The position numbers and the translations under genes are program-made. A DNA stretch of 64,000 nt from Candidatus Zhuqueibacterota bacterium (lineage in GTDB: Bacteria; Zhuqueibacterota; Zhuqueibacteria; Thermofontimicrobiales; Thermofontimicrobiaceae), in NCBI GenBank assembly GCA_049322915.1, contig JBMOPW010000035.1:160001-224000 (forward strand), given 5' to 3'. The notes below the pieces were generated by a model, which saw only the letters and a list, made by a program, of their open reading frames with translations, was not told where the DNA came from and did not search any database. This document shows, in pieces, positions 31,533-64,000 of this stretch (the first letter of the stretch is position 1; each line of letters begins with the position of its first letter).

Positions 31533-31534
31533 GC

Positions 31535-39123: not shown

Positions 39124-39194
39124 CGCCAGGACTGGCATAAATAGCCGCTGTTGCTGGCTGGGGAAATGAATGAACTTTGCGCATTGGAGGAGCA

Positions 39195-43893: not shown

Positions 43894-43932
43894 AAAAAAG
43901 GCGAGAATTGCATTTGCGTTCTCGCCTTTTTT
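43894..43932. terminator. Bidirectional rho-independent terminator
   Basis: AAAAAAGGCGAGAA / TTCTCGCCTTTTTT between convergent genes. Confidence 0.85.
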
Positions 43933-43954: not shown

Positions 43955-46270
43955 CTACTTCAGGAGAAGCATTTTCATTGTCTTCGAATAATCGCCAGCT
44001 TCGATTCGGTAGAAGTAAATACCACCGGATACATTGCGACCGGTGTAGTCTTTGGCATCCCAGGAAACGGAGTAATTGCCAGCGACTTTGTATCCATTCA
44101 CCAGGGTGGCAACTTCCTGTCCCAGCATGTTATAAACTCTCACCGTAACCATCGAGAATTTCGGGATCGAATAGGTGATCATCGTGGTCGGGTTGAACGG
44201 GTTGGGATAGTTCTGACCCAGCGAATAGTTTTCCGGCCGAACCGTGCCGGTAATTAAATCATCAACCGCCAATTTAATCGGGGGTTCTTCCACATCGAGC
44301 GGTGGGTCTTCCGTGAATGTATCTGTCGGGAATACCCATGCATTTGGGAATGTACCATCCACGTTGGGTTCGATATAGCGAGTGCGATACCGGCCGAAAT
44401 CAAATCCGCCGCCTTCGACGATATCACCATACTTAAACGCATATTCCATACCGTAAATCGTTGGGCCGTGAATCTGGAACGAACCAGTGTAAATGAGGTC
44501 GCCATCCGGATCGGTGAATTCAGCAAGCGTATCGGCGTAAGGGACATATCCCTGGCCGACTGCCCAATGGGGATCTTGCGGCTGAATTTTCACTGTATCT
44601 GTGGCAGGATTGAACGGTACGGCAAGAGTCAATGCCGGATTCATGTCGACATTGAATGTCAGGGTGATAACCTGTCCTAAAGGAATCACACCGCCATGAG
44701 GAATATCGTTCATGTATGAAATCGGAGCTTCCTGATTGGGAGTGCCCGCAAATTTCAGGAATCGGTTACCACCGCCCTGGGTGTAAGGCACTTCATAACC
44801 CCAGTCAGCTTCCTTCCATTTTGATGTATCGGCGTAATTGATGTAGTATTTGTAATACACATTGTCACCAACAATTCCTTTGTTGGTCATGATGCGTTCG
44901 TACATCATTGTGCCGGGGAATCGTTCCAGGTAATCGCCAGAAGCCCAGCCATTAAAGCCGCCGCGGATCATCAAGGAATCCAGGTTACGATCGAAGAATC
45001 CAGCGTTTTCCCAGACTTCCATATCGACGGTGAACAGGATGGCGCCTTCTTTGGTCACGCCACTGAATTCATCATCGCGATCGAAATAAACCGGGTCCAG
45101 TGTTGTATTAACACCAGGATTGGCCAATTCGCGGTTGGGATCGCCTTCCCACATGTCTGTGCCATCGGCTTTGTGAATCACGTACTTGTAGTAGAGAGTC
45201 GGTTCTGTACCAACGTTAGCAGCGACAGAATAGATGCTATCTGCATCAGCATCGAGTAATTCATCGGCATTGCCAGCCCAGCCGTTGAAATTGCCGCGAA
45301 TAACGATGATATCCGAACCGGGGACGAATACTTCTTCGCGCATTTTAATGCTCATGTCGCACTGGAACGTGACAAACACATCGCCGGGAGGAGTATACTG
45401 ATCGTCGCGATCAAAGAAAACCACGGGCAGTGTCTGGGTTCCGCTATTGGCGAATTCGCGATTGGGATCGCTTTCCCACACATCGCTGCCATCGGCTTTG
45501 TGAATCACATGTTTATAGTAAATCGTCGCTTCCATTGTGCCGACATTGAAGGTGCCGGTGTAAATGGTGTCAGCATTGGCATCAGTCAACTGCTCATTGT
45601 TGCCGCCCCAGCCGTTGAAATTACCGCGAACAACCACGATATCTCCAGCCGGATCGAATGACGCTTCGCGCTGTTTGATGCTCATGTCGCACTGGAACGT
45701 TACCATATTGCCGACGCCAACCACATTGATCGGATTCGCCAGATTGACGGCGTAATACGTTGGGTCTGTGAAATCCAGAGCCGCATTGGTGACAAAGTAA
45801 CCAATGTTGTAATCGCCGGATGTATTGCCGACGGTAAAATCAACGTAAAGATCAGCATAGCCTGTATCCAGAGCCGCGGCAAACGGTTGAGAGGACTGGT
45901 AGACAACCCAGTTCATTCCGGCCGGCGCCGGATAGCGTACGTTCAACGAGTCGGTCCAGTAATCGACCTGGCCGCCCGGATCGTTATCCGCGCTATCCGG
46001 ATGCAGGAATGTGCAAAAATCCGGACCGTAATCGCCTGAGAAAAATACTGAATCTACAACCCAGCCGGTGGGAATTAACAATCCGACGATGCCGTAGTGC
46101 GCATTCGCGTCTATACCCTCTGTACGAACTTCGAGGTAGGTCTGAATCTTGTCGCCACCATTGGCAGTCGTTGCCTGATCGATGCTTAAGATCGTAAAGC
46201 AACCGCTAATCAACGGGAGCAGCATTACGAGACTCAGCAAACCCAGTAATTTAGTAGTGTTGAGCTTCAT
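43955..46270 (-). CDS. Secreted protein with tandem CBM20/CBM48-like (putative starch-binding) modules and C-terminal T9SS-A/FlgD-Ig-type sorting domain
   Basis: Signal ending ISGC; repeated VTFQCDMS..RGNFNGW..YYK(H/Y)VI..WE; C-terminus QNYPNPFNPTTMITYSIP..VYNMLGQEV..WDAKD..SGGIYFYRI..KMLLLK; GGAGG RBS. Confidence 0.8.
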   Translation of the reverse strand: MKLNTTKLLGLLSLVMLLPLISGCFTILSIDQATTANGGDKIQTYLEVRTEGIDANAHYGIVGLLIPTGWVVDSVFFSGDYGPDFCTFLHPDSADNDPGGQVDYWTDSLNVRYPAPAGMNWVVYQSSQPFAAALDTGYADLYVDFTVGNTSGDYNIGYFVTNAALDFTDPTYYAVNLANPINVVGVGNMVTFQCDMSIKQREASFDPAGDIVVVRGNFNGWGGNNEQLTDANADTIYTGTFNVGTMEATIYYKHVIHKADGSDVWESDPNREFANSGTQTLPVVFFDRDDQYTPPGDVFVTFQCDMSIKMREEVFVPGSDIIVIRGNFNGWAGNADELLDADADSIYSVAANVGTEPTLYYKYVIHKADGTDMWEGDPNRELANPGVNTTLDPVYFDRDDEFSGVTKEGAILFTVDMEVWENAGFFDRNLDSLMIRGGFNGWASGDYLERFPGTMMYERIMTNKGIVGDNVYYKYYINYADTSKWKEADWGYEVPYTQGGGNRFLKFAGTPNQEAPISYMNDIPHGGVIPLGQVITLTFNVDMNPALTLAVPFNPATDTVKIQPQDPHWAVGQGYVPYADTLAEFTDPDGDLIYTGSFQIHGPTIYGMEYAFKYGDIVEGGGFDFGRYRTRYIEPNVDGTFPNAWVFPTDTFTEDPPLDVEEPPIKLAVDDLITGTVRPENYSLGQNYPNPFNPTTMITYSIPKFSMVTVRVYNMLGQEVATLVNGYKVAGNYSVSWDAKDYTGRNVSGGIYFYRIEAGDYSKTMKMLLLK

Positions 46271-46354
46271 CAATTTCCTCCAGATTTAGTTAATTGTGTA
46301 ACGGTTATTGGCAATAAACTTTGTTACAGCAACACTCCAGTTTTTAGAAATGAA

Positions 46355-46425
46355 ATCACCTCCTTTGAACAACCTGAATTGCGTCAAAGTTTCATGTATT
46401 CGTTGTTTTGAGCACCACCTCCTTT
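46355..46425 (-). promoter_or_regulatory. Two tandem full-length Shine-Dalgarno sequences in the leader, not coupled to the gene start
   Basis: Minus strand AAAGGAGGTG (46425-46416) and AAAGGAGGTGAT (46366-46355); the gene has its own GGAGG next to the ATG. Confidence 0.6.
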
Positions 46426-46768
46426 GGAGCATTAAATTCATATTTCTGAAATAAACGATCTCTGCCGCTTCCGAGTCTGTTCGAACAAGGATACCTGGTA
46501 CAGAATGATTGATCTTTCAACAACGGCCGTGGTCGCGCCTAATCGCCTGTGCCCATCACTTTCTTCCATGAACGCGATGTCAGATTTCAGTATCTTTCCG
46601 GCACAGCTCGCGATTAGCGCTGTCAGCGATGCTGCATTCAGCGCTAACAGTGTTCGATGCGCTTCGAGAAAATCGACAGGGCAAGCGACAATTCATCATG
46701 GTGACCCGGTTGGTCAGCCGTCACTGATTGAAAAGCGGTTAACGGCCGACCGATATTCTCAAACCAGG

Positions 46769-47800
46769 CTAAAACTTCACTGCCACAGTGAATTGGTGGA
46801 TATCATTCAAATGAACAAATTGCTCATAAGCGTAATCAATTTTCAAACGCCTTCCGCCATCCATAAAATAATTAAAACCAATGCCAACTCCATACTTTTC
46901 TTCGCGGTCTTTCATTCCCAGCGATTTAATGCCTCCGCGAAACGACACAATGTTCCGAAGCGTCGAATATTCGCCGCCGACATTGATCGACTCGGTATTA
47001 TCATTGGGATGCAGGCCATCCACAGCCAGGACCAGCCGATTGAAATCCGTATCGATGATATCTTTGGAAACGCCGATGCGCATGGTCAGCGGCAGATCGA
47101 ATTTATCGGTGGCAAGATAGGCATTGACGCTTTCATTATTGCCGGCCTGGCCGCCGGCAATGTCTTTCTGCACCAATAAATCATCTCCCAAAATTTGCAT
47201 CTTTTGGCCAAAATTGGAAATGCTCGCGCCGAGTTTCAATCCCTGGAAAGGCGTCACGAACAGCGTGCCAATATCCAGAGCGATACCACTGGCATTGGTA
47301 TTCCAGATATTCTCGGTGATGTATTTTGCTGTTGCGCCAATGGAAAAATTATCCGTCAGGTTGCGGGCGAACGTCAAGCCGGCGACAAAGCTCGCGGCGG
47401 AGAACGTTTCCCCGGTGCCCTCCGGATCGTATTCTGTGGTGATATCCATTTCATCCATGGTCATGGCGGTGAAACTCAAGCCAACGGTTCCGGCATTGCC
47501 CATGGAAATGGCCAGTCCGACGAAATCGAATCGGATATCTGCCAACCAGTTGGAATGCATGAACACAAATTCGTTTCGGTCCAATCGCGCAATGCCGGAC
47601 GGGTTCCAGTAAAGCGCTGTGGCATCATCGGCGACCGAAACAAATGCGCCGCCCATACCGAGCGCACGGGATCCGACCGGGATGCTGAGCACCTTTGCCG
47701 CCGTTGTCCCAATTTTCGTGACTTCCTGACTTTGAGCCGAAATCGATACAAGGAAAAGTACCAGCAGGCTCACAGCAACGCTTAATGTATATTTTCTCAC
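46769..47800 (-). CDS. PorV/PorQ-like (UPF0164) outer-membrane beta-barrel, copy 2
   Basis: KIGTTAAKVLSIPVGSRALGMGGAFV..DDATALYWNPSG, HSNWLAD, SNFG, terminal F; GTG start after AGGAG. Confidence 0.88.
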   Translation of the reverse strand: MRKYTLSVAVSLLVLFLVSISAQSQEVTKIGTTAAKVLSIPVGSRALGMGGAFVSVADDATALYWNPSGIARLDRNEFVFMHSNWLADIRFDFVGLAISMGNAGTVGLSFTAMTMDEMDITTEYDPEGTGETFSAASFVAGLTFARNLTDNFSIGATAKYITENIWNTNASGIALDIGTLFVTPFQGLKLGASISNFGQKMQILGDDLLVQKDIAGGQAGNNESVNAYLATDKFDLPLTMRIGVSKDIIDTDFNRLVLAVDGLHPNDNTESINVGGEYSTLRNIVSFRGGIKSLGMKDREEKYGVGIGFNYFMDGGRRLKIDYAYEQFVHLNDIHQFTVAVKF

Positions 47801-47815
47801 AGCGACTCTCCTGTT

Positions 47816-50800
47816 TTATTTGATGATTGCAAATTTCCCGATCTTTTCTCCGATACCCGGGGCGTCCACATGAAAGATGTAAACGCCATAGGCCAATGTC
47901 AGATTATCCCGCGTCAGGACATCCCATTCTGCGGATCCATTATCCATGAGACTGTGGTGGTCGATGGTATCCACCAACTCGCCATTCACCGTGAAAATGC
48001 GGATGGTACAATCTTTGGGCAGATGATTGAAATGAATGGAGCGCGGCCCGCGACCGGTCGTGAAAAAATTGCGAGGTTCCCAGATCGCGGCTGCCACATA
48101 GGGATTGGGCACGACTTTGATTCGGTCCAGATCATTCGCTGCTTGCTTGACATCGATTTTAGCGCTATCGGTTGTGAATTCAAAAATCACATTGGAGAGG
48201 AACGGCTTGGTCACAAACAAGTCGGCAACATCGCCGCTTTGTGGATTTCGATGCAGCGTATCATAAACCACCTTGAAGCGCCAGCTCGGAGCCAGGTCAA
48301 CGACAGCATTCTTTTCCATGAAAACGATCACGTCCGTTTCCAGATACGACGCCGAAAACACGCCGTCATTGCCATCCGTTTCCCAGAATGCGAAAGCCAC
48401 ATTTGCCGAATCGGTCGTGTTGTACACTGTAAAATTCACTGGCCGCGGCTGCAGTTCAACCCCACGTCGAATGTATAAATACACCGAGGTGTCCATGCCA
48501 ACGTCGCCGAAGGTGATCCGATAGTCGGCCGGGTTGGGGAAACCAATCCAGAAACCGGCCTGAAATGGGATCAGTGAGAGCGGGAAAACGTCATCATCGT
48601 TCCATTTGGAGAGCGACTGGTTGATCGCAATTTCGTCCTCGTTCTCCAGAATCAGTCTGAAACCATCGGTCATTGGGACTTCGTCGCTGCTCTTGAGTTT
48701 TTTGCATTGCCAGATGAGCGTATCCACCCCGCCCTGGCCTTCGTACGTCACATCGAACAGTGAAAAGTCCAGCGTCGTCAGCGTGTCGGTGTCGGTCAAT
48801 TCTTTTCCTTCGATGAGCGTATCCCGGAACGTGATGCGGTAGGTATGATTATCAGGAATTATTCGAGCGTCCACAATATCATAAGTGATAATGCCGGTCG
48901 TATTGCCAATGATCGGCTTTTCCAGATTCATCAATTGCGGAGCAACGTACCCGGCGGATACCGCATTGGGCACCACGCGCGCGACATTGCTTCCCATTTT
49001 CACCTCGCCGGTCGTTTCCACCGTAATGGGAATCGGCGTTTCGCTCGGCGGTATTTCAGCCCAAGCTGCTTCGCGGTCATAGGCGGTGACAGCGTAATAA
49101 TACGCCTGGCCATTGATCACATCGGTATCCACCCAGGAATGACGCAGGCCGGTATCATCGCCCATGTCAAAATGGGCGCCGTTGATGCTCAGCGAATCCA
49201 GCCCTTTGATGCCATTGGCCAGGTCAAATTGCGCCACTGGCCGATAGTAGGTATAATTGCCGTCCGCATCGGTGATGGAGTAGGCATCTTCAAACGCCGG
49301 GTCTGTGGCTTTGTAAATGCGGTACCCCTCGAAGTCGTAGCCTTCAGCGCCAATGTCCGACATGAATTTATCAAACGAGAGTTCAGATTTGCTATCCCAG
49401 TACAGGGTCACTTTGTTGTTCCCGGGTATTGCCGTCAGCGTCGGGATGAGCGGCGCCGTGGCAAAGGTATAGTCGAGATCGTATGTCTTCTGGGACATAT
49501 TTCTATTTCGCATGGCGTCGTCACTGTCCTGGCCCAAATTGACCGCCATGGACACACGCTCGCGCTGGCCTGCTTTCAGCGGAAAAAAGCCAGACGAGAC
49601 GAACAGGTCAAACTCGCCGGTGTAATCGACGGTGGGATCCCAGAATTTTCCCGGCGTCATCCATCGGCGCCAGGTATTATCATCCTGTTCCGTGTGAAAA
49701 TCGCCTGCCGGCTGATACTGCACATTGGTCACGCCCAGTTGATCCGATTCAGACACGTCGGTTTTATCGATGTTCGGTTCCCCGGGCAAATCAGTGCCGG
49801 CCCCGCTGGTCGGTGCGCCATCGCTCTGCCCTTTGTCCACGGTCAGGATATCGCCATCCAGGCCCACATCATCATTGAATAAATCCCAGTCGCCGTCATC
49901 GTCGATAAAGTTTTCCCGGGATTCATCGATCATTTCATCAATTCCTTCATCAATGAACTCGTCGACTGCATTGTTGCCGTCGTTGTCTTTGCCATCGGCG
50001 TAGCGTTTCCCCAAATCCTCGGCGCCGACATTGTACAGCGTAATTCCATTGCCAGCCGTATAACGCCCGCCACTGCCAGCCGCCGCGTCAATCATTGCCT
50101 GGGTGATCACCGGACTATTCGCTTCCCCATTGCCATTATTATCGATCCAGTCGCGATAGCCACTGCCCACATCGGAATTATCTTCATCGTACAAGCCGTT
50201 TGAATTATCATCTTTCCCATTGTCGACAGTTTCGCCGGCGATCATCTCGGAAGTGATCGTCGGACTGTCACTCTCCCCGTCGCCATCATTATCGATATGA
50301 TCACGATACCCAACTCCCACCTGCGCGCCAAACGCGATGTGCGTTTGGTTTTCGTCGATCAATCCATTTTGATTGTCATCTATCTGATTCGTCGCATCTT
50401 CGTCGAAAATCATTGTCTCGGTGACTATGGGGCTATTTTCCTCGCCATCACCATCGTTGTCAATGCCGTCGATGGCGTTGCCCGGCGTCTCCAGGAAGGA
50501 TGTGGCAGCAACGCCCACCGGGTCGTCTCCGAAGGCGGTATTGCCCTGATTCGGCGGAGAATCGGTGCACCAGGCTACATCGTTGAGCAAATCGAAATCC
50601 GAATGATCATCCATATTGTCGCCATCACCGCCGACAAGGTCGAATACGAACAACGTCACCGCTGCTTTATCCAGGTCTTTGGTCCCATCGTTTTTAATAT
50701 CGTAAAGGACAAAAACCACATCGTTCACCAGAATTTGAGACCACTGGAGCACACGTACATCCACCAACAGACCCAGACCGCGGCGGGTCAAATCCGTTGT

Positions 50801-51385
50801 ATCCGGATAATACTCATACCGGTCATACGTGTCATCGGATATTTTATAATAGAGCTCGTAGTCCGCCTTGAACTGGTTCTTTCCGAAATAACCGTTCCAC
50901 GAACCAGTCCAACCCGGATCCTCTTCATCGCCCATTTTATCGGGCCAGGTATCGGGCCAGGTTTTACGATCTTCGCCGGAAGCGGCCAGCGTTGTCAGAG
51001 CGATGTCATCGGAATTGGGATTGCAATACTCTTTGATCGGTTCCATTTGCCACGACTCGCCGGTATTGCTGCTCCGCGAATGGACAGCGGTGATGGGACG
51101 AATGGTGCCGTTTTCCAGCATCACCTCCGCGCCAATCATCAATCCGGTCTGAGCCAGATAGTGCTTGCCTGTATTTTTTGGCCATTCATAGGGAATGCCA
51201 TCGCCGGGCTTGGTTCTGCCGGTCGTGCCGTTGTTCCAGATGGTCGTTCGGACAAGATTCCCGGCGATATCGGTCGTCCTTCGGTAACTGGAACTGCCGC
51301 GTTCATCGCTTGGCACATGCTGGGCAAAGACGGGCAAAGTCCAGATGAGAAAAAACATCACGAGAAAAATGCGCTTTACAGCCAT
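47816..51385 (-). CDS. Giant exported hypothetical protein (1189 aa) with acidic Dx(D/N)xDG-type repeats, Fn3-like region and variant C-terminal sorting domain, copy 2
   Basis: Signal peptide; EWPKNTG, GSWNGYFGK, RRGLGL, FLETPG, DGIDNDGDG repeats, DFEGYRIY, YYYAVTAYD, IKVVPNPY..GKFAIIK. Confidence 0.85.
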   Translation of the reverse strand: MAVKRIFLVMFFLIWTLPVFAQHVPSDERGSSSYRRTTDIAGNLVRTTIWNNGTTGRTKPGDGIPYEWPKNTGKHYLAQTGLMIGAEVMLENGTIRPITAVHSRSSNTGESWQMEPIKEYCNPNSDDIALTTLAASGEDRKTWPDTWPDKMGDEEDPGWTGSWNGYFGKNQFKADYELYYKISDDTYDRYEYYPDTTDLTRRGLGLLVDVRVLQWSQILVNDVVFVLYDIKNDGTKDLDKAAVTLFVFDLVGGDGDNMDDHSDFDLLNDVAWCTDSPPNQGNTAFGDDPVGVAATSFLETPGNAIDGIDNDGDGEENSPIVTETMIFDEDATNQIDDNQNGLIDENQTHIAFGAQVGVGYRDHIDNDGDGESDSPTITSEMIAGETVDNGKDDNSNGLYDEDNSDVGSGYRDWIDNNGNGEANSPVITQAMIDAAAGSGGRYTAGNGITLYNVGAEDLGKRYADGKDNDGNNAVDEFIDEGIDEMIDESRENFIDDDGDWDLFNDDVGLDGDILTVDKGQSDGAPTSGAGTDLPGEPNIDKTDVSESDQLGVTNVQYQPAGDFHTEQDDNTWRRWMTPGKFWDPTVDYTGEFDLFVSSGFFPLKAGQRERVSMAVNLGQDSDDAMRNRNMSQKTYDLDYTFATAPLIPTLTAIPGNNKVTLYWDSKSELSFDKFMSDIGAEGYDFEGYRIYKATDPAFEDAYSITDADGNYTYYRPVAQFDLANGIKGLDSLSINGAHFDMGDDTGLRHSWVDTDVINGQAYYYAVTAYDREAAWAEIPPSETPIPITVETTGEVKMGSNVARVVPNAVSAGYVAPQLMNLEKPIIGNTTGIITYDIVDARIIPDNHTYRITFRDTLIEGKELTDTDTLTTLDFSLFDVTYEGQGGVDTLIWQCKKLKSSDEVPMTDGFRLILENEDEIAINQSLSKWNDDDVFPLSLIPFQAGFWIGFPNPADYRITFGDVGMDTSVYLYIRRGVELQPRPVNFTVYNTTDSANVAFAFWETDGNDGVFSASYLETDVIVFMEKNAVVDLAPSWRFKVVYDTLHRNPQSGDVADLFVTKPFLSNVIFEFTTDSAKIDVKQAANDLDRIKVVPNPYVAAAIWEPRNFFTTGRGPRSIHFNHLPKDCTIRIFTVNGELVDTIDHHSLMDNGSAEWDVLTRDNLTLAYGVYIFHVDAPGIGEKIGKFAIIK

Positions 51386-51409
51386 ATCGTTTCTCCTGTT
51401 AATTCCAGA

Positions 51410-54172
51410 TTATAAATTTGACAAATCAATTTCCAGCCCGATCTGAATCTCGCGCGGCGCAGAATAGAAATGCGGGTACACCAGGTATTCGTCGACGGTA
51501 TTGACGCGAATGCCCTCAGTCTCAACCACATTGGCAGCTTCCAGCGTGTTGTTCGCGCGGCCGGTATCGCCGAAAACGTTGATCTCATTTTTTCTATCCA
51601 ACAAATTGAAAATATTGGCAAATAAAATCGCCTTTACATTCCTGAATCTGATGCTTTTATGGAATTTCAAATCAAAGGTCATGGTGACCGGCTTTCGCCG
51701 ACTATTCGCTTGCAAACCGGTCGATAAATTCTGTCCCTGCCGGGAAGCAACGCTGATGGAAGGCGAATACGGGAACGCCGAGCCGTACCGGCCAAGCAGA
51801 CTGAATCCACCCCACGGTGCAGCAAAGGAGAACGCGCCGTTGAGGGTATGCGTCTGATCCCAATCCAGAGGGATGATCATTTTTGTCGGTTCAGCCTGGG
51901 ATTGCAGAGCGTAAAACTCTTCGTTGGGGTCGGAGTTGCTGCCTTCGGCAACCTGGTAGGTATAGTCGACATTCATCGAGAAATCATTCACCGGGCGCAT
52001 GTCAAAGGCAAGAGTCACGCCACGGACATTGGCGTAATCTTTATTGATATAATTCGAATAAGCCACGCCTGGGATGTATGTCTCAATGGCAACGCTGGTC
52101 GTCACCCAGTTGCGCACATCGCGATAGAACCCGGTCAGATCGATGGCTATCTGATCGCTGATCTGCTGCTGCAAGCCAATTTCGTACATGACTGTCTTTT
52201 GGGGCTTCAGATCCGCATTGCCAAAAGGTCCCTGGATACCAGTCGAGGACGACACTTTGTAGCCGGGGTTGGCGTACAGGTAGAGGAAATTCGGGATTTG
52301 TAAAAAATGGCCGTACGAGAAATGAATCGTGCCGCGATCGGTGATAGGATAGGCAATGCCGAATCGCGGGCTCACCTGATATTTGGGCTCCACATCGCGG
52401 TACCAGTAACTAAGCCGGTCGTCGAAAGTCGTCAAATTGCCCGGCAGGTCCAGCAGAGAATCCGGCAGCGCAGGATTGTGGTAAATATTCTCAGGCTTGA
52501 AAGGATTGTAAATATTGGGGTCTGACGGATCGTTCAGCACCTTGCCGTTGGCGTTGAAATAGTCGAACCGCATGCCGATATTGACGATCATGCTCTTGTA
52601 CTCGATTTTATCCTGAAAGTAAAGCGACAGTTCGACCGGCCGTCGCGTGTACATATTGTGATTCGGCGTATTGATGTCCAGAATGTCCGGCTCAAACGGT
52701 GTAATTTCCCGGCCCGATGCGTCTCGCTTGGCCACCAGTGTGTAATCATCCAGGAACAATTCGTGAAGGCGCCCTTCCAGACCGGCTTTCACCTGATGCA
52801 ACTGATTTAACTGCACGGTATAATCCAGCTTACCGACCCAGGTGTTCGTGTTCCGTTTGAAATGATGCAGATTGGTGCCCTGATCCAGGAAAGCGTACGC
52901 CGGGACGATCATCGAATCCGGATGGACATAACGCGTATCCGTCGAGTTTTCGTAGAGATATTCATTGAACCGCTTATAATAATTGGACACGTTCACCGTG
53001 TAGAACGACCGCTCGCTGAGGGCGTGGGTGAAGAGAAGCGAAAGATTGTAACCATCTTCAAATTTTTCCACGTCGCCGGTGGGATTCCACTTGAAACCAT
53101 GATTATAGTCTCTGTAATTCATCTGGCTGCCCAGCGCGCCAATGCTGAGTTTCATCGTCGGGGTGAGCTTCGCCGTCAATTTGGCCTGAGCCGAAAGCTT
53201 TTGATCGAAATCCATGGCCACTGGTTCAAAATCACCGGCAGAGCCGTCCGGCAAAAATCTATTTTGGCCGTACAGCCAGCCGTCACTGAAATTATACCGC
53301 GTGGTCGCGAAGAAATTGATATTCTTTGCAAAGGGCAGAGGGCCGTCCATGCTGGCTTGCGCATTATAATTCGCAAATGGATTGACATCATCGATATTAT
53401 AGAAAATATCGTTATTGCCACTCACGAAGTCACCGCTATAGCCGGAGAGATTCAGATGATAATTGCTGCCGCCCTCTTTGGTCACAATATTGACGATGCC
53501 GGACATGGCCTGGCCGTATTCGGCGTTGAACGTCCCGCTGATGACCTGCAATTCCTGCACTGATTCGTTCTCCACCTGCACCGAAATCGATCCGTCGTAG
53601 ACGTCGGTGACTGAAATACCATCCACCCAGTAGGCCACCTCAGAAGAGCGACCGCCGCGAATGTGAATGCCGCCGTCGCGATCCACGGTGACGCCGGATT
53701 GCAGCGCCAACACTTCGGAGACTTCCTGGACCGGGAGATTTTCGATCTGCTCCGCATCCACGTGCGCTTCGGCGGATGTGAGGTCTTTGGTCACCATGGG
53801 CCGTTCAGCAATCACAACCACTTCTTTGCCCAGTTCCAGCACCTCCGTGGAAAGCTGAAAATCCAACGTCGTTGTCAGATCGATGGACACTTTCACATTG
53901 GTCAATGTCGATTTCTCGTAGCCTATCATCGAAGCAGTCACTGTGTATTTTCCCGGGGGGATATTCAGGATCACATAGTATCCGTTCATATCCGCGGCAG
54001 CGCCCATTGTTGTCCCTTCGATCAGGATATTCACGCCGGGAAGCAATTCGCCGCTCTGCGCATCCCGGACAATCCCGGAGATTTTGCCGGTGGTCCCGGC
54101 AAAACCGGGCTGGCTCACCAGCACGATGAAAACGAGCAATAACAGAGTTACTCCTGAACTATGCATTCTCAT
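51410..54172 (-). CDS. TonB-dependent receptor with N-terminal carboxypeptidase-regulatory-like domain, copy 2
   Basis: AGTTGKISG..LPGVNILIEGT..PPGKY; plug HIRGGRSSEVAYWVDG, SGTFNAEYGQAMSGIVNIVTK; barrel QDKIEY, SPRFGIAYPI, PREIQIG. Confidence 0.92.
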   Translation of the reverse strand: MRMHSSGVTLLLLVFIVLVSQPGFAGTTGKISGIVRDAQSGELLPGVNILIEGTTMGAAADMNGYYVILNIPPGKYTVTASMIGYEKSTLTNVKVSIDLTTTLDFQLSTEVLELGKEVVVIAERPMVTKDLTSAEAHVDAEQIENLPVQEVSEVLALQSGVTVDRDGGIHIRGGRSSEVAYWVDGISVTDVYDGSISVQVENESVQELQVISGTFNAEYGQAMSGIVNIVTKEGGSNYHLNLSGYSGDFVSGNNDIFYNIDDVNPFANYNAQASMDGPLPFAKNINFFATTRYNFSDGWLYGQNRFLPDGSAGDFEPVAMDFDQKLSAQAKLTAKLTPTMKLSIGALGSQMNYRDYNHGFKWNPTGDVEKFEDGYNLSLLFTHALSERSFYTVNVSNYYKRFNEYLYENSTDTRYVHPDSMIVPAYAFLDQGTNLHHFKRNTNTWVGKLDYTVQLNQLHQVKAGLEGRLHELFLDDYTLVAKRDASGREITPFEPDILDINTPNHNMYTRRPVELSLYFQDKIEYKSMIVNIGMRFDYFNANGKVLNDPSDPNIYNPFKPENIYHNPALPDSLLDLPGNLTTFDDRLSYWYRDVEPKYQVSPRFGIAYPITDRGTIHFSYGHFLQIPNFLYLYANPGYKVSSSTGIQGPFGNADLKPQKTVMYEIGLQQQISDQIAIDLTGFYRDVRNWVTTSVAIETYIPGVAYSNYINKDYANVRGVTLAFDMRPVNDFSMNVDYTYQVAEGSNSDPNEEFYALQSQAEPTKMIIPLDWDQTHTLNGAFSFAAPWGGFSLLGRYGSAFPYSPSISVASRQGQNLSTGLQANSRRKPVTMTFDLKFHKSIRFRNVKAILFANIFNLLDRKNEINVFGDTGRANNTLEAANVVETEGIRVNTVDEYLVYPHFYSAPREIQIGLEIDLSNL

Positions 54173-54190
54173 GAATTGCTACCTCCTGTT

Positions 54191-55936
54191 TTATTGAAAA
54201 ACATGCCATCGTAATTTTTCGTTTTGTATTTCAATATTCGCTTCCTGTCGCATGGTTTGAATGGTATTGTGCAATCGAATTTTACGCCATTTCCAGAGAA
54301 TTTCATTTTCAATCTGGTGACGCGCCTCTTCGAAAGTCTTTGGCCGTTGACCCTCTACGGCGATCAATTGAATGAACGAGTAATTGCCGAGAATTTTCAG
54401 CGGCCCGATAATTTGCCCCGGTTGCATGGAAAAAATTGTATCGGCCAATGCCCCGTACCGGGTTCGAGGCGCCATGCCTAATTCACCGCCGCTTTCTCGC
54501 GCCCATTCCCGGATGGAATATTTTTTGGCCAAATCTGAAAACCGCTCTCCGTTTGCCAAACGAGTTGAAAGGTCTTTTGCCGATTCTTCATCTGCAACTA
54601 AAATTTCCCTGACATTGGCTGATGCCTGAAATGAATAATCGCCTGGATTTTTGTCGTACACTTCCCTGGCAGCGACTTCCGTCACCGTTGCTGTATCGGA
54701 AAACATTTTCACCATCTGGCCGACGATATACCCGTCGATGGCGTGATCAATTTCGGCTTGCGTCTCTTTGTCCTTCGCCCATTGGCTTTGCTGTGCCTGG
54801 TGAAGCAGTTCTTCCCGAACTACGAGACCGGTAATAAATTTTTTCAAATCATCAGCGGTTCGAATTCTGCGCTGCTGCCGCTGGCTGGTGTATTTCGCCT
54901 TTTCTAAAAACTGCGCAACCGTCCAAAATCCGTTTTGGGAGGTCATCAGCGTCTCATCCATAATCTCGCCCATCAAATCCGGCGCGAACACATTCCCGAT
55001 GTCAGCTTGTAACGAATCAGGGGCCGATCCTTCCAAACGTGCAGCCATGAATTGCAGGATTTTTTCATTGAATTTCAAATCCAAATCACGGGATATTTTG
55101 CTGCCAAATTCCTGGGCCGCGGTTATTGCCTTTTCGCGCTTTAGAATTTTGGTGATGGCCGGTTTCGCATCGAGAAATTCCTGCTCGCTCACGAACGGCT
55201 TGAAAAACCGATCCTCCACGTTGATGATGCTGTAGCCATATTTGGTTTTGACCGGTCGAGAAATTTCGCCAACCTTAAGCGCAAAGGCCGCCTGCTCGAA
55301 AGCCGGCTCCATTTCATCCTTGCCGACATAGCCTAAATAGCCGCCAGTGGCCGCCAACGTCGAATCCTGAAATGTCAGCCGGGCCAGTTCCTCGAACCGG
55401 GCGCCATTTTGAAGCTGCCGGTACAACTCGTTGGCCTCCTCCTCTGTTGCGGCGTACAAATGCCGCGCGCTCACCTTCTGTGTGTAGTAGCGGAAGCCGC
55501 GCCGCAGTTCATTCTCCGCGACCGAGACTGTGTCGTAAAACGCTTTCCTGCGGAATGTATTCAGGTAAAATTGATTTCGAATGCTCTCTGCTTTTTGTTT
55601 AAAAAGCGACGAATCGTCCAATCCGCTGTCATAAAAATTTTGAATAAGCAGCCGCTCGCCGATCATCTGATCGAGGAGATTTTCGCGCGTCTGCAAATTA
55701 TCCTTGATGCCGGTCATTCGCGTAAAATATTCCAGCCGTTCAGCGAATTCGCTCACGCGGATAAATTCGTCATTGACCCGTGCGAAATATTCCTCATTGG
55801 AATTTTTGCCGCATTGGATCAGAGATAATAAAAGTAAAACCAAGACAGACCAGCGATTGAAAAATCGGTACAATTCTTTGGTCCCTGATATCAGTGTTGA
55901 TAAAGAAAATAAAACTACTCCCCGAAACAGTCTCAT
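54191..55936 (-). CDS. SurA/PrsA-like peptidyl-prolyl isomerase with two parvulin domains, probable lipoprotein
   Basis: SARHLY..FEELAR..GGYLG..FEQAAFALKVGEISRPVKTKYGYSII; second VREILV..FSDLAKKYS..GGELG; LIQC motif; ATG overlaps the GH13 stop (ATGA). The start could be further downstream. Confidence 0.85.
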   Translation of the reverse strand: MRLFRGVVLFSLSTLISGTKELYRFFNRWSVLVLLLLSLIQCGKNSNEEYFARVNDEFIRVSEFAERLEYFTRMTGIKDNLQTRENLLDQMIGERLLIQNFYDSGLDDSSLFKQKAESIRNQFYLNTFRRKAFYDTVSVAENELRRGFRYYTQKVSARHLYAATEEEANELYRQLQNGARFEELARLTFQDSTLAATGGYLGYVGKDEMEPAFEQAAFALKVGEISRPVKTKYGYSIINVEDRFFKPFVSEQEFLDAKPAITKILKREKAITAAQEFGSKISRDLDLKFNEKILQFMAARLEGSAPDSLQADIGNVFAPDLMGEIMDETLMTSQNGFWTVAQFLEKAKYTSQRQQRRIRTADDLKKFITGLVVREELLHQAQQSQWAKDKETQAEIDHAIDGYIVGQMVKMFSDTATVTEVAAREVYDKNPGDYSFQASANVREILVADEESAKDLSTRLANGERFSDLAKKYSIREWARESGGELGMAPRTRYGALADTIFSMQPGQIIGPLKILGNYSFIQLIAVEGQRPKTFEEARHQIENEILWKWRKIRLHNTIQTMRQEANIEIQNEKLRWHVFQ

Positions 55937-57804
55937 CGCAACCTCAAATTCAGGCAAGCCAATTTCGTCTCCAGACCGGGGATTAAAATAAGCCCGGCTT
56001 TGCAGTCGACCTTCAATTCAATTTTGCCATCGATGACCAGAAAACGGTCCCCGCTCAGCAAGTCCATCCATTGTTTCCCGGCCGCATCCAATTGCAGCGG
56101 CTGAATTCGCTCGGAGCTATTCACCACCACAATGACTTTCTGCTCATCATAATTTCGTTCGAACGCATACATCGATTTTTCATCATCAACCACGAGGGAC
56201 TGAAAATCACCCAGCATCAGCGCCGGGTGCTCTTTTCGAATGCGGATCAACTCTTTATAATAATGAAAAAGATCGGGATTGAATTCATTTTTATCCCTCG
56301 GACGAACCGCGCCAAACGGATGGCTGACTTCATCGTCGTATTTCATATCAGCCCAGAGCATGGGCTTTCGCTCGTCCGGGTCGCTGGCGCCCCACATGCC
56401 GGCTTCATCGCCGTAATAAATCATGGGCGCGCCCGCGTACGTCATTTGGAACAGCGCGATGAGCTTCTGGATTTTTATCTCATCGGCCCGCGGCTTGCGA
56501 ACGTTGTAATTTTCGTTGGCGTTCAGCGTATTTTTGTGCCCGTAAATCCGGTCCGGATTTACAATCATGGAAGGCAGCCGGTCCGTATCGTGACTGTCCA
56601 TCAAATTCTGCAACACATAGTTGGCTTCGAACGGGTAATCGGTTCTGACCCGGGCCAGTTCCTGATCGAATTGTGTGACCGATATTCGATTTTCCTGATC
56701 AATGAAAAATTTGGTGACCGCCGCGGCAAAACGATAATTCATCACCGCGTCGAACATATCGCCCTGGAGCCAGTCCGCGGCGTTGAACATTTTTTCCGGC
56801 CATTTCTCCCACCAGACTTCGCCGGTCAAATAGGCCTCCGGATTGATTGAGCGAACCAGCTTGCGGAATTTCACCCAGGACGCGCGGGTCACTTTTTCGG
56901 CCACATCCAGGCGCCAGCCATCGATGCCATCCGAAGGATCGCCGTCGCCGTTGGGGTCCATCCATCGTTTAATCGAAGCTTCCATGTACGCCCACGGCTC
57001 TGCTGCAAAGCCATCGCTTCCTTCGCGAATCTCCGGCATGCCTTTCACACCGGCCCAGCATTCGTAATCGAATTCATCATCTTCAGTGTCAGGGTTGTCC
57101 CAGGACTTCACAGCGAACCATTCCCTGAATCTGGATTTCTGTTGATTCATCTTCAGATCAGCGAAAGCGAAAAAGTTGACGCCAACATGGTTGAACACAC
57201 CATCGATGATCACGCGGATATTTCGTTCGTGACACTGTTTGATCAATTCAAGGAAAAGCTTGTCGGCGGCAGTCCACTGCCAGGTCGAAGGATCGGCGGG
57301 ATTTTCGTTTTCGAAGAGAATTTTATCGCCGGCAGGATCCGGGCCAAAATTATCTTCGATGTGGTGATAAAATGTGCCATCGTACTTGTGAAGCGATGGC
57401 GACTCAAACAGCGGGTTGAAATAGATGGCGTTGATCCCCAATTCGTGCAGGTAATCGAGCTTGTCGATCACGCCCTGCAAATCGCCGCCACATCGCCGGC
57501 GCTGGGCGTGATAGTAGAATCCTTTATCATCCTGCTCCCACGGTTGAAGCTGATACCAGTCCGCAGTCCAGGGTGAAGTCTGAATTTCGCGCATGTCGCC
57601 GAACGGCCAGGATCCGATGATATCCTCCAGTCCGGGATCATTGGCCGGGTCGCCATTGCGGAACCGTTCCGGAAAAATCTGATACCACACGGCCTTTTTG
57701 GCCCACTCCGGCGCCTGGTAATTGATCCGGGTTTCCTGGCGACAGTTCAGGCAGAGCAGTCCTGCCATGAGCAGAATAATGAATTGGATTTTCCATCTAT
57801 TCAT
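55933..57804 (-). CDS. GH13 neopullulanase/cyclomaltodextrinase-like alpha-amylase, exported (possible lipoprotein)
   Basis: VWYQIFPERFRNGD, GGDLQGVIDKLDYL, SLHKYD, IDGVFNH, DGWRLDVA, GEVW, DSHDTDR, YYGDEAGM. Confidence 0.93.
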   Translation of the reverse strand: MNRWKIQFIILLMAGLLCLNCRQETRINYQAPEWAKKAVWYQIFPERFRNGDPANDPGLEDIIGSWPFGDMREIQTSPWTADWYQLQPWEQDDKGFYYHAQRRRCGGDLQGVIDKLDYLHELGINAIYFNPLFESPSLHKYDGTFYHHIEDNFGPDPAGDKILFENENPADPSTWQWTAADKLFLELIKQCHERNIRVIIDGVFNHVGVNFFAFADLKMNQQKSRFREWFAVKSWDNPDTEDDEFDYECWAGVKGMPEIREGSDGFAAEPWAYMEASIKRWMDPNGDGDPSDGIDGWRLDVAEKVTRASWVKFRKLVRSINPEAYLTGEVWWEKWPEKMFNAADWLQGDMFDAVMNYRFAAAVTKFFIDQENRISVTQFDQELARVRTDYPFEANYVLQNLMDSHDTDRLPSMIVNPDRIYGHKNTLNANENYNVRKPRADEIKIQKLIALFQMTYAGAPMIYYGDEAGMWGASDPDERKPMLWADMKYDDEVSHPFGAVRPRDKNEFNPDLFHYYKELIRIRKEHPALMLGDFQSLVVDDEKSMYAFERNYDEQKVIVVVNSSERIQPLQLDAAGKQWMDLLSGDRFLVIDGKIELKVDCKAGLILIPGLETKLACLNLRLR

Positions 57805-57916
57805 AGCTGAATCCTTCACCCTGTATTCGCGGTAAATTTTCTTTCAAATAGTTGGCTTGGTAACATTGCGCACTGCCCAAAGCGACCACCCTTGTTTTGC
57901 CACTGCTTCCGTCCGA

Positions 57917-58936
57917 TTAAAATTCCAGCGCAACGGTGAATTGCTGAATTTCGCTCAGCACGCCAAAGTCCTGGTACGCGTAATTCAATTTGATCCGGAG
58001 CCCGCTGATGAGCGAATAGTAAAATCCGGCGCCCATGGCGATCCCTTCCTCAGAATCTTCGGCGAATAGCGTCTTGTAGCCTGCGCTCAAAGAGAACATA
58101 TTCCTGAACAGATACATGCCGCCCAGGTTGATGAATTCGACATCGTCATTGGGATGGAGCGCGTCCACAGCGATGATCAAATTGCTGTCGCCCATGCCTT
58201 TGAGCACATCCATGGACATGCCAACACGGAAGAGCAATGGTAAATCGTACGCTTCCGTCTTCAGTTCGGCATTGATATTCTCATTGTTGCCGGCAATGAT
58301 GGGATTGGTATCCACCTGCAGAATCAGGTCGCGACCGCTCATCCGCATTTTCGTGCCAAAATTGGAAATGTTCATTCCAATCCTGAGTCCATTGAACTGC
58401 GTGATGAACTGGGTTCCCACATCAAAGGCAAGGCCGGAAGCGGATGAATTGTAAATGAATTCATGGATGTATTTCACATTGCCGCCGATATTGAATCGAT
58501 CGGTCAAACGCCGGGCATAGGTTAAATTGAACGCATACGCTCCGGCGGAAAATAACTCGCCGTTACCATCAGGATACTCCACGGTAGTGCGTTCCATATC
58601 ATCCATCGTGAGGAACGTTGCGCCGGCACCGATGGTTCCGAAAGAAAGCGGCACCACAATTCCAGCGAAATTGAAACTCATATCGGCAATCCAGCGATTG
58701 TGCGTGAACACAGCCTCGTTGTTATCCACATTGGCAATGCCAGAAGGATTCCAATACATGGCGGTCGCATCGTCCGCCGAAGAGACGTAGGCGCTGCCCA
58801 TGCCAATCGCCCGTGCGCCGACATCGATATTGAGAAAACCAGCCGCGGTCGTGCCGACTTTAGTCACCTGGCTGAATCCCTGAACAGGTATTCCGAAAAT
58901 CAATATCATTAAAGCCAGAAAAAATATCTTCTTCAT
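57917..58936 (-). CDS. PorV/PorQ-like (UPF0164) outer-membrane beta-barrel, copy 1
   Basis: KVGTTAAGFLNIDVGARAIGMGSAY..DDATAMYWNPSG, HNRWIAD, SNFG, terminal F; clear paralog of 46769-47800. Confidence 0.88.
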   Translation of the reverse strand: MKKIFFLALMILIFGIPVQGFSQVTKVGTTAAGFLNIDVGARAIGMGSAYVSSADDATAMYWNPSGIANVDNNEAVFTHNRWIADMSFNFAGIVVPLSFGTIGAGATFLTMDDMERTTVEYPDGNGELFSAGAYAFNLTYARRLTDRFNIGGNVKYIHEFIYNSSASGLAFDVGTQFITQFNGLRIGMNISNFGTKMRMSGRDLILQVDTNPIIAGNNENINAELKTEAYDLPLLFRVGMSMDVLKGMGDSNLIIAVDALHPNDDVEFINLGGMYLFRNMFSLSAGYKTLFAEDSEEGIAMGAGFYYSLISGLRIKLNYAYQDFGVLSEIQQFTVALEF

Positions 58937-58956
58937 TGCTCAGCTCCTGTTATGCG

Positions 58957-62457: not shown

Positions 62458-62511
62458 ACTTCTTCCTCAAATTTATTGATTCCAATTTCGGTTGACAATT
62501 GATCGTTACGG

Positions 62512-63999
62512 TTAGAAATTCACTGCGACGCCGAACTGAATCTGTCTCGGCTCGGTATACCATTCCGGGTGAGAGAAGTATTCTTCCAGCGTCCCCACTC
62601 GATTGGGATCCTCAAAAATGCCGACTGAATCCAGTGTGTATTCCGGCGATCCGGTATCGGTGTACACCCATGTCGCATTGCGCATATCGAATAAATTGTA
62701 GACATTGGCGAACACGGAAAAATTCAATCCTGAAATTTTCAGATTATAATTCACATACATATCGAATGAATACTGGTCCGGCAGGCGATCGCTGTTCTCG
62801 CGCAGTTCGTTGTAAGTCCCGCCGCCGGTGACGGTTCCTTTGGGGAATCGGGGCGTGTAGGGCAAACCGCTCCAATAACGTCCCAGGAAGGAAACGCGCC
62901 AGCCAGCCGTGCCAATGCTCACGGTGCCGTTCAAGGTGTGGCGACGATCCCAGCTCAGCGGAATGAGCTGTCGCCGCGGTTCCTGTTTTCCCTGTTCTGC
63001 ATTGTACGCATCAGTGGGATTGGAGTAGCTGCCTTCGGTGATCATGAAGGAATAATCCACCGAGGCTGAAAAATAATTGGAGTAGCGCTTGTTCAACGCC
63101 AGTGTGAATCCGCGCACATTGGAATAATCTTTATTTTCGAATTTCGAATATTTGACAGTGCCATAGGTTGAAATCAGCGGACTCGTTCCAACCCAGTCGC
63201 GGACGTCGCGGTAGAACATGGTGATGTCAATACCGACGTTCTCGGTCACCTGCTGCTGCAAGCCAATTTCGTACATCACCGTTTTCTGAGGTTTCAAATC
63301 CGAATTGCCAATCACGCTGGCGCCCTCAGCCTCGGTCACTTTGAAATCCGGGCTTGAGTACAGAAAATCGAACAGCGGTATCTGGAAAAAGTGACCATAG
63401 GAAAAATGAATCACACCGCGCTCGGTGATGGGATAGGCGATGCCCAGCCGCGGGCTGAATTTGGATTTTGCCGAAGCGTCTTTATACCAGAAACTGCGAC
63501 GTTCTTCCAGAGGAATGATATTCGACGGATTATCGAGCTGGTCTTCGGGCAAATCCGGATTCACATAATAATGCTCTTCAAGAAGCGGAACATAGACATT
63601 GGGATCCATCGGATCGGCAAGCACCTGGCCGTCCGGGTCGAAATAATCGAAGCGCAGGCCGATGTTCACGATCATATCTTTCAATTCAATTTTATCCTGC
63701 ACGTAAGCGGCAATTTCAACCGGCTTGTGATTGTAGAGATTGTGATAAGGCGTAGTAATCGATGGAACATAGGGTTCGAACGGGATGATCTCCGTATTGC
63801 CTTCCCGTTTCGGTTGAATATTGTACCATTCCAGATTCAAATCGTGCTGGCGGAACTCCACGCCGGTTTTTATCTGATGTTCCCGATTCACCTGACTCAC
63901 CAGATCGAATTTGCCAATCAGATACGACGTGCTTCTGAAAAAATGATCCATCTTTGTACCGGCGTGATTGAAGCTGTACGACACCGGGTTGCGCAACGA
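62512..63999 (-). CDS. TonB-dependent receptor, C-terminal barrel part (5'-truncated by window), copy 1
   Basis: Frame open to the window edge; QDKIEL, SPRLGIAYPITERGVIHFSYGHFFQ, DLKPQKTVMYEIGLQQQ (identical block in the other copy), PRQIQFGVAVNF. Confidence 0.9.
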   Translation of the reverse strand, partial: SLRNPVSYSFNHAGTKMDHFFRSTSYLIGKFDLVSQVNREHQIKTGVEFRQHDLNLEWYNIQPKREGNTEIIPFEPYVPSITTPYHNLYNHKPVEIAAYVQDKIELKDMIVNIGLRFDYFDPDGQVLADPMDPNVYVPLLEEHYYVNPDLPEDQLDNPSNIIPLEERRSFWYKDASAKSKFSPRLGIAYPITERGVIHFSYGHFFQIPLFDFLYSSPDFKVTEAEGASVIGNSDLKPQKTVMYEIGLQQQVTENVGIDITMFYRDVRDWVGTSPLISTYGTVKYSKFENKDYSNVRGFTLALNKRYSNYFSASVDYSFMITEGSYSNPTDAYNAEQGKQEPRRQLIPLSWDRRHTLNGTVSIGTAGWRVSFLGRYWSGLPYTPRFPKGTVTGGGTYNELRENSDRLPDQYSFDMYVNYNLKISGLNFSVFANVYNLFDMRNATWVYTDTGSPEYTLDSVGIFEDPNRVGTLEEYFSHPEWYTEPRQIQFGVAVNF

Positions 64000-64000
64000 A

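Follow-up and report, generated by a model that had tools for sequence, protein, structure and literature searches.

The SusC/SusD pair is the textbook account of how Bacteroidota succeed on polysaccharides. A different outer-membrane partnership belongs to the machinery of type IX secretion (T9SS), whose component PorZ is built of beta-propellers and delivers anionic lipopolysaccharide (A-LPS). According to the accessible text of one source, PorZ and PorU retain their C-terminal domains (CTDs), which fasten them to their barrels, and the PorQ barrel anchors PorZ (PMC10947112). The FadL-like barrel BamG of Bacteroidota is described, in the available part of another source, as using its loops to grip a protein at the surface (PMC12578637). 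In Bacteroides, lipoproteins other than SusD that are encoded beside TonB transporters other than SusC have been proposed as lids, with conserved proximity as the evidence, and BtuG has been shown to cap BtuB (10.1101/2023.03.17.533168, excerpted text). Here we report on a 64-kb window, by which we mean the whole stretch of DNA analysed (C35:160001-224000), in a Candidatus Zhuqueibacterota assembly of 6.25 Mb in 45 contigs that is 96.3% complete. The window carries two copies of a gene triad encoding a TonB-dependent receptor (TBDR), a giant protein (hereafter the giant) and a PorV/PorQ-family barrel. With moderate confidence, we read this triad as an outer-membrane module for nutrient capture and import that is analogous to SusC/SusD but works without SusD, the giant being exported by the T9SS, anchored on the barrel and engaged in capturing substrate.

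The first-pass annotation of the window, made from the sequence alone, described a run of nine co-oriented minus-strand genes, and all nine were recovered in their places by open reading frame (ORF) listing and domain scans (Table 1). The order of transcription is TBDR1, giant1, barrel1, a glycoside hydrolase family 13 (GH13) gene, a peptidyl-prolyl isomerase (PPIase) gene, TBDR2, giant2, barrel2 and a gene for a protein with carbohydrate-binding module (CBM) 20. The joint duplication of all three triad genes in the same order was borne out by the identities between the paralogues (TBDRs 47%, giants 40%, barrels 51%). The gaps inside the triads, given as 15-55 bp, measured 54 and 20 bp in triad 1 and 24 and 15 bp in triad 2. 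TBDR1 runs past the end of the window; the full gene (C35:222512-225385) encodes 957 aa.

The triad recurs throughout the genome. Searches by tblastn and phmmer located at least 20 units, each on one strand and in the order TBDR, giant, barrel. Match counts of genome searches refer throughout to high-scoring segment pairs and not to genes. Strict ORF calling gave 17 such units and tblastn added one on C7 (151-158 kb). The same contig also holds a TBDR-barrel pair, three genes upstream of which lies a giant-like gene. Contig ends truncate two units, one on C29 and one at the start of C34. The paralogy of the two window triads thus stood, but the idea of a mere tandem duplication did not, as the triads belong to a family of about 20 per genome. 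Chance adjacency and a one-off tandem duplication were ruled out by the units in the same order, at least 20 in number, together with related loci elsewhere.

These related loci were collected from other genomes. A search with the C-terminal 607 residues of giant1, in which the 7999 candidates sharing most words with it were scored, returned at least 1089 homologous protein clusters at E<=1e-3. All named homologues were called 'hypothetical protein' and none had a Pfam domain; their sources include KSB1 and Calditrichaeota. With one genome per species scanned, 573 loci were confirmed and the best 80 kept; being closest to giant1, these are biased to starch-type loci. Their record titles name Ignavibacteriota (among them the cultured Melioribacter sp. 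OK-6-Me), KSB1, Calditrichota, Neomarinimicrobiota, Stahlbacteria, Kryptonium, Rhodothermales and metagenome-assembled genomes (MAGs) labelled Bacteroidota, the organism names of MAGs being those deposited and possibly loose. One of the 80 loci, in which an antisense ORF masked the giant, was dropped. In the ORF calls, 61 of the 65 loci with room for a TBDR had one as the giant's direct upstream neighbour, and in 61 of 69 testable loci its direct downstream neighbour was a barrel. The missing gene was recovered by tblastn in 10/10 exception loci, so that the counts became 65/65 and 69/69. The adjacency of receptor, giant and PorV-like barrel predicted from the window was therefore complete in every testable locus. 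Two loci (L069 and L121; one Neomarinimicrobiota MAG and one Ignavibacteriales MAG) had the order TBDR, barrel, giant, each followed by a PPIase-like gene. Within the window's own phylum, a giant match (E<=1e-10) was found in 149 of 151 sampled genomes and in 104 of 105 high-quality genomes; this tally counts the window's genome (G000) and, as positives, the unpublished genomes G093 and G149.

The co-phylogeny check suggested by the first-pass annotation showed that the three genes co-diversify as a unit. Over the 17 strict units, Mantel correlations of the distances were 0.79 for TBDR and giant, 0.77 for giant and barrel and 0.87 for TBDR and barrel (each p = 2e-4, 5000 permutations). When 39 TBDR paralogues (41 matches less two shorter than 600 aa) were placed in a tree, all 19 triad receptors fell into one clade of 21 (SH-aLRT 98). 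The other two members of this clade also adjoin giants: one lies by an array of giants on C26, and the other, at a contig edge on C34, has the C-terminus of a giant downstream. A row of four ~1175-aa genes similar to the C26 array was seen on a Rhodothermales chromosome (G003:C1:2131504-2141438). The barrel tree, with 32 barrels (38 matches less six longer than 460 aa), gave a corresponding picture: 19/19 triad barrels shared a single group of 21 (support 92/75), and the true PorV fell just outside it. The triad label required two changes on this tree, compared with 10.3 for shuffled labels. We conclude that the triad duplicates and diverges as a block.

We also asked which partner the receptors have in place of SusD. 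TBDR2 has a normal plug and barrel (PF07715 at 6.8e-10, PF00593 at 1.2e-24). It fails the SusC/RagA model TIGR04056 (71.9 bits vs 368.25), only the N-terminal 208 model positions being aligned. The claim that the system is independent of SusD held for the whole genome, in which the three SusD families PF07980, PF14322 and PF12771 had no match; the profiles were positive in a control with B. thetaiotaomicron. When the sequence beyond position 64000 was retrieved, the upstream neighbour of TBDR1 proved to be a LacI-family regulator gene and not SusD. Among five other genomes that carry the triad, SusD (PF07980) was not found in those of Melioribacter, Caldithrix and Stahlbacteria; it occurred twice in the Rhodothermales chromosome and once, weakly, in the Marinimicrobia genome. 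The triad had been presented as a trait of lineages outside Bacteroidota, but Rhodothermales genomes carry it together with SusD.

The giant itself differs from any SusD protein. All 17 giants of the strict units have a signal peptidase I-type (SPI) signal peptide (that of giant2 ends in ...VFAQ) and no convincing lipobox, so they are not SusD-like lipoproteins. The only family match of the window giants was a weak one of giant2 to the PorZ C-terminal model (E 0.0074). We modelled giant1 with AlphaFold2 from an alignment of 45 sequences (mean pLDDT 80.7, pTM 0.72); the middle part folded alone reached a pLDDT of 91.7. The predicted layout is an SPI signal peptide, a supersandwich domain (~30-600), an FN3 domain (~603-782), further beta domains (~787-1043) and a CTD (1049-1166). 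The fold of the model was searched against 48,161 chains, independently of Foldseek. In the head (model span 29-772), ~240-283 residues aligned to galactose-mutarotase-like supersandwich domains. The best match was cyclic glucan synthase 8rf9 (Z 19.7), followed by GH15 glucoamylase/glucodextranase (Z 18.3-18.6) and GH94 and GH65 phosphorylases (Z 14-18.7); aldose epimerases gave Z 12-13. Likeness of the head to the carbohydrate-binding N-domains of GH15, GH94 and GH65 enzymes had raised the possibility of a catalytic role, which was rejected: since no (alpha/alpha)6 or TIM domain follows the head in the model, we treat the giant as probably non-catalytic.

The modelled CTD of giant1 (residues 1049-1166) is a seven-strand Ig-like beta-sandwich of the CTD fold with a pLDDT of ~90 outside one loop. 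It superimposes on the PorZ CTD (5m11_A 684-776) with Z 12.1 and a root-mean-square deviation of 2.0 A over 91 residues at 25% identity. PorZ and PorU were also the top whole-chain Foldseek matches; beyond these, Foldseek returned only FN3-array matches of low TM score. Residues 603-782 match FN3 domains (Z ~9). Residues 787-1043 gave no clear fold match, with one FlgL row at Z 8.5 and FN3 arrays only from Foldseek. An insert at ~321-500 with DNDGDG-type repeats was poorly modelled and is present in some paralogues only (occupancy 0.24). Among 23 paralogues, mean pairwise identity was 39% in the CTD and 36% in the FN3 domain and was lowest, at 21-23%, in the head.

Both window barrels pass the cut-off of the PorV/PorQ family model NF033709 (188.3 and 195.7 bits vs 90), and both stay under the equivalog cut-offs (NF033710, NF033711; PorV 62-63 bits vs 250, PorQ 82-96 vs 220). 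Barrel1, which ends in a terminal F, scored 85 bits on the PorV2 equivalog model, again below cut-off. Matches to FadL/Toluene_X were weak (E 3.5e-4 and 1.3e-3, below cut-off). The true PorV of the genome is encoded at C44:52873-53883 (258 bits vs cut-off 250). Given this true PorV, we regard the triad barrels as additional members of the PorV/PorQ family. The genome has a full T9SS: besides PorV it encodes one SprA and two PorU, and type-A CTD models matched it more than 50 times. SprA co-occurred with the triad in 5/5 other triad genomes. SprB/SprF had been named as the precedent for a dedicated barrel. This was wrong, as the accessible text of PMC10947112 pairs type B CTD proteins with PorP-like proteins; the closest precedent is PorZ on PorQ.

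The contexts of the units were examined by Pfam scans of 126 flanking ORFs. As expected for loci resembling polysaccharide utilization loci (PULs), the flanking carbohydrate-active enzymes (CAZymes) differ between loci (Table 1). Judged by these neighbours, the substrates of the genome's units may include xylan, beta-glucan, substrates of GH94/GH144-like enzymes, substrates of GH38 and peptides handled by peptidases. The cultured Melioribacter sp. OK-6-Me has four units. Among the 80 related loci, genes on the same strand included CBM20/CTD-like genes (60/80), GH13 (18/80) and LacI (11/80). A PPIase homologue on the same strand lay directly upstream of the TBDR in 25/80 loci and anywhere in 36/80; this suggests that the SurA-like PPIase serves the unit as its own chaperone in the periplasm.

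Table 1. Features of the gene run in the window, and genes flanking triad units elsewhere in the genome and in Melioribacter sp. OK-6-Me
Feature	Position	Strand	Evidence or flanking genes
TBDR1, C-terminal 495 aa in window	62512..64000	-	PF00593 at 1.7e-30
giant1, 1166 aa	58957..62457	-	ORF; 0 Pfam and 0 NCBIfam matches at E<=0.01
barrel1, 339 aa, PorV/PorQ-family (FadL-like)	57917..58936	-	NF033709, 188.3 bits vs cut-off 90
GH13 alpha-glucan hydrolase, N-terminal signal sequence	55933..57819	-	PF00128 at 2.1e-49
SurA/PrsA-like PPIase, two parvulin domains, signal sequence	54191..55957	-	PF00639 + PF13616 ~1e-31, SurA_N_2
TBDR2, 920 aa, carboxypeptidase-regulatory-like N-terminal domain, plug, 22-strand-type barrel	51410..54172	-	PF13715, PF07715, PF00593
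giant2, 1189 aa, giant1 paralogue	47816..51385	-	40% identity, full length
barrel2, 343 aa, PorV/PorQ-family	46769..47800	-	NF033709, 195.7 bits vs cut-off 90
CBM20-repeat/DUF4961 surface protein, type-A T9SS CTD	43955..46270	-	PF16328, PF00686, PF18962, TIGR04183
Intrinsic terminator, GC-rich hairpin	~43894..43932	-	RNA fold
Triad unit	C34:305k		CBM9-CTD protein, two GH10, SSF symporter
Triad unit	C40		SSF, CBM9-CTD, GH16-malectin-CTD, GH5
Triad unit	C14:899k		LacI, CBM9-CTD, GH94, two PF10091 glucanase-like (GH144-like) genes
Triad unit	C34:640k		AraC/PocR, B12-binding proteins, GH38, DUF4185
Triad unit	C16:203k		RpiR, M20 + S51 peptidases, DcuC
Triad unit	C16:129k		tricorn/S41 protease
Triad unit	C12		RpiR, LTD/BNR CTD protein
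Units without obvious catabolic neighbour	three in tandem on C11, C14:542k, C14:1038k, C20, C21, C29, C7:42k
Melioribacter sp. OK-6-Me starch unit			GH31, GH13, PPIase, TBDR, giant, barrel, CBM20/48-CTD protein, GH13
Melioribacter sp. OK-6-Me unit			GH130 + ABC importer
Melioribacter sp. OK-6-Me pectin unit			GH43, GH88, GH28, pectate lyase, pectinesterase
Melioribacter sp. OK-6-Me fourth unit			GWxTD protein alongside

In the window, the starch-type substrate proposed for the locus is consistent with GH13, CBM20 and LacI. The GH13 enzyme is predicted to belong with neopullulanases, cyclomaltodextrinases or maltodextrin glucosidases; the NCBIfam models for maltodextrin glucosidase and cyclomaltodextrinase match it under their cut-offs. 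Outside the triads, the gap between barrel1 and GH13 is 97 bp and that between PPIase and TBDR2 is 18 bp, and the GH13 and PPIase ORFs overlap by 25 bp at their called starts. Barrel2 is separated from the CBM20 gene by 495 bp of non-coding DNA. In view of this gap and of its own GGAGG Shine-Dalgarno sequence and ATG, the CBM20 gene may be transcribed separately. The CBM20/DUF4961 protein (window 43955-46270, minus strand) combines two surface-anchoring signals, a lipobox (LISGC) and a type-A T9SS CTD.

The terminator said to close the run was found in the 106 nt past the CBM20 stop codon and is strong: a GC-rich hairpin of 14 bp with U6 behind it. Its minimum free energy was -27.3 compared with -18.5 in shuffles (z = -2.7), and it is probably bidirectional, because the hairpin has an A-run on one flank and a U-run on the other. 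A scan for consensus promoters and terminators gave 22 sites (20.3 expected) and did not list the terminator at the end of the run. Upstream of TBDR1, past the LacI gene, follow in order a 316-aa protein without family, a second SurA-like PPIase (L009:4000-5757, minus strand) and Mla genes. Just upstream of the starch run, the plus strand (window 25758-41888) encodes GH3-PA14, an S9 peptidase/esterase, GH97, GH127, GH20 and an SSF symporter; its GH97 could contribute to starch use as an alpha-glucosidase. Farther away (window 1934-10683, plus strand), the gene for a bacterial alpha-2-macroglobulin of 1876 aa precedes one for a PBP1C-type penicillin-binding protein, a familiar gene pairing.

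Three observations concern individual units elsewhere. The three full triads on C11 (G000:C11:4055-28581) form a tandem series on a single strand; Fur, FeoAB and an iron-dependent repressor are encoded nearby on the opposite strand. The unit at G000:C34:640000-659999 has a short middle gene of 609 aa, and its neighbours, which include two proteins with a B12-binding domain, are an odd mixture of cobalamin-type and mannoside-type genes. GWxTD proteins (PF20094) adjoin several triads without CAZymes, directly downstream or nearby, both in this genome and in Melioribacter (L032:14511-16010, L037:14818-16245, L033:2127-3038, L131:12106-13500).

In the mechanism that we propose for the triad, the TBDR would be the energised channel. 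The giant, not being a lipoprotein, would pass the inner membrane by Sec via its SPI signal peptide and the outer membrane by the T9SS via its PorZ-like CTD. The CTD would stay uncleaved and bound to the extracellular face of a private PorV/PorQ-family barrel, and this barrel would serve as the membrane anchor that holds the giant beside its cognate receptor. The variable galactose-mutarotase-like head may bind oligo- or polysaccharide and hand it to the receptor as a lid or as a tethered binding protein, and the conserved base of FN3 domain and CTD would dock to conserved partners. In the window, two such modules would serve alpha-glucans. The CBM20 surface protein would hold starch, maltooligosaccharides would enter via TBDR1 or TBDR2 and then be cut by the signal-peptide-bearing GH13, LacI would control the operon, and the SurA-like PPIase may chaperone large outer-membrane components. 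The proposal builds on the observed gene content, linkage, co-diversification and folds, on the absence of SusD and on the presence of a T9SS; from these we infer the export route of the giant, the retention of its CTD, its docking to the barrel, ligand binding and lid action.

Several results weigh against this proposal. Block duplication alone can yield co-diversification without contact between the proteins. At least 9 of ~20 units had neither a CAZyme nor a peptidase in the fetched flanks, and on C26 (G000:C26:168000-187999) four giants (1000-1044 aa) stand in a row with one TBDR and no adjacent barrel. YidC and many enzymes also have the supersandwich, as a structural domain that does not bind, so the fold of the head does not imply ligand binding. 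The type-A CTD models PF18962 and TIGR04183 miss both window giants (E<=0.01), as do type-B models, and among the 23 paralogues the only such matches were CHU_C in 4/23 (best E 0.0038) and FlgD_ig in 1/23. The type IX CTD ascribed to the giant by the first-pass annotation was thus confirmed as a PorZ-like fold in the model, but not as a domain that type-A CTD models recognize, and since these models miss the tails of the giants, it is the fold likeness alone that argues for export by the T9SS. Finally, proteobacterial TonB-dependent glycan importers are described, in the available text, as functioning without a lid (PMC13543919).

The last point leads to the alternative that we take most seriously, even though we consider it unlikely: the receptor may work alone, as in the proteobacterial carbohydrate-utilization TonB (CUT) loci, and giant and barrel may form a SusE/F-like, T9SS-anchored accessory that binds glycan or acts as a scaffold, gathers substrate close to the cell and neither caps nor gates the receptor. 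Apart from the existence of such lid-less importers (PMC13543919, in part), this would suit the size of the giant, about twice that of SusD, and its beads-on-a-string beta domains, which recall surface glycan-binding proteins. It would also suit the further CBM20 surface protein in the locus and the lack of one-to-one pairing in the C26 array. Yet SusE/F-like accessories are optional in PULs and SusD is obligatory, whereas the giant is linked near-obligatorily to one dedicated receptor clade (65/65 and 69/69 testable loci) and its distances follow those of the TBDR (0.79).

A role in surface-protein biogenesis or adhesion is, in our judgement, improbable. The giant would then be an adhesin or an S-layer-like coat that barrel and PPIase export and anchor, and the TBDR-like protein would serve in signalling or export. 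The PPIase directly upstream of the TBDR in 25/80 loci and the GWxTD proteins flanking several units could be read in this way, as could the DNDGDG repeats, which are of a Ca-binding type typical of surface and matrix proteins, and the roughly half of the genome's units that have no obvious catabolic neighbours. Against it stand the many units flanked by CAZyme sets, LacI/RpiR/AraC regulators and inner-membrane sugar transporters, the normal plug and barrel of the receptors, and the ~20 divergent copies per genome, which are more readily explained by substrate diversification than by a coat protein. We give very little credence to a model in which the FadL-like barrel is itself the channel for a hydrophobic ligand or a product, with the CTD of the giant merely as its gate or plug. 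True transporters do exist within the FadL family (accessible text of PMC12578637) and the barrels have the weak FadL/Toluene_X matches given above, but they score far better on the PorV/PorQ model (188-196 bits) and group beside true PorV, and the flanking enzymes target hydrophilic glycans and peptides.

The capture-and-import reading of the triad can be extended to a bolder proposition, which we put forward tentatively and would not yet back as the likelier outcome. It holds, taken as a whole, that the triad is a third nutrient-capture architecture, alongside lid-less TonB transporters and the lipoprotein-lidded SusCD and BtuBG, a two-barrel utilisome in which an uncleaved T9SS protein, hinged on a PorQ-like barrel, opens and closes over a TonB transporter; that it is the main glycan and peptide importer of the SusD-poor phyla of the FCB (Fibrobacterota, Chlorobiota, Bacteroidota) group (Calditrichota/KSB1, Ignavibacteriota, Marinimicrobia, WOR-3); and that PorZ-PorQ is one specialised relative of a much larger triad family.

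No description of the triad was found in open-access papers and bioRxiv preprints, save for one naming. The 2013 genome paper of Melioribacter roseus calls Mros0761-0759 'SusC, SusD and SusE', names given by analogy, and, in its accessible text, describes a layout of GH31 and GH13, then this trio of outer-membrane proteins and finally a CBM48 protein that is secreted (PMC3534657). This layout matches the starch locus with TBDR, giant and barrel in Melioribacter sp. OK-6-Me, a different strain. Because the OK-6-Me genome gave no SusD match and has its triad unit in that position, the M. roseus names were probably given by position to a mislabelled trio; judged by the layout in the other strain, Mros0760 and Mros0759 would be giant and barrel. 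The genome paper of Caldithrix abyssi mentions TonB for B12 and thiamine only. A term search in the available text of a 2026 review of glycoside transporters returned no mention of Ignavibacteria, Calditrichota, Rhodothermales or type IX secretion.

Several sister phyla of Bacteroidota, which abound in sediments, hot springs, groundwater and the dark ocean, are polymer degraders with little or no SusD, and the triad is a concrete candidate for the machinery that they use for uptake. If our reading is true, there would be a direct tie between type IX secretion and nutrient import, and a large unannotated family (at least 1089 clusters, without a Pfam model) would gain a function. PULs in SusD-poor phyla would then become predictable from a marker pair, as they are from SusC/D in Bacteroidota. 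The idea is directly testable, as cultured hosts exist, for example Melioribacter with units by starch, mannan and pectin genes.

Compared with known systems, the triad shares with SusC/SusD a TBDR that has a carboxypeptidase-regulatory-like N-terminal domain and is encoded beside an obligatory partner gene. As in SusC/SusD, there are many divergent copies per genome near substrate-specific CAZymes, regulators and inner-membrane transporters, and the window resembles a SusC/SusD starch locus in having GH13 and a starch-binding surface protein. The giant shares neither the tetratricopeptide-repeat (TPR) fold of SusD nor its lipoprotein nature; its length is about double, its structure is all-beta and a type IX CTD fold forms its end. 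The triad also differs from SusCD in its third obligatory gene, that of the PorV/PorQ-family barrel, and in a receptor that fails the SusC/RagA model. With PorZ-PorQ (and PorU-PorV) it has in common a CTD that is closest to that of PorZ and the pairing of its gene with that of a FadL-like, PorV/PorQ-family barrel. Unlike PorZ, a single-copy housekeeping part of the T9SS, the giants occur in ~20 copies, are linked to TonB receptors and often stand beside catabolic genes; they have a supersandwich head and FN3, and their barrels miss the PorQ/PorV equivalog cut-offs. The Bacteroides lids and BtuG are, in the accessible text of their source, lipoproteins that have no extra barrel and serve small substrates (10.1101/2023.03.17.533168), whereas the giant would be barrel-anchored and T9SS-type and is linked to polysaccharide loci in other phyla. 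Taken together, the gene and fold evidence suggests that the triad is a TonB-transporter nutrient locus whose surface partner is built on a new, three-part architecture linked to type IX secretion.

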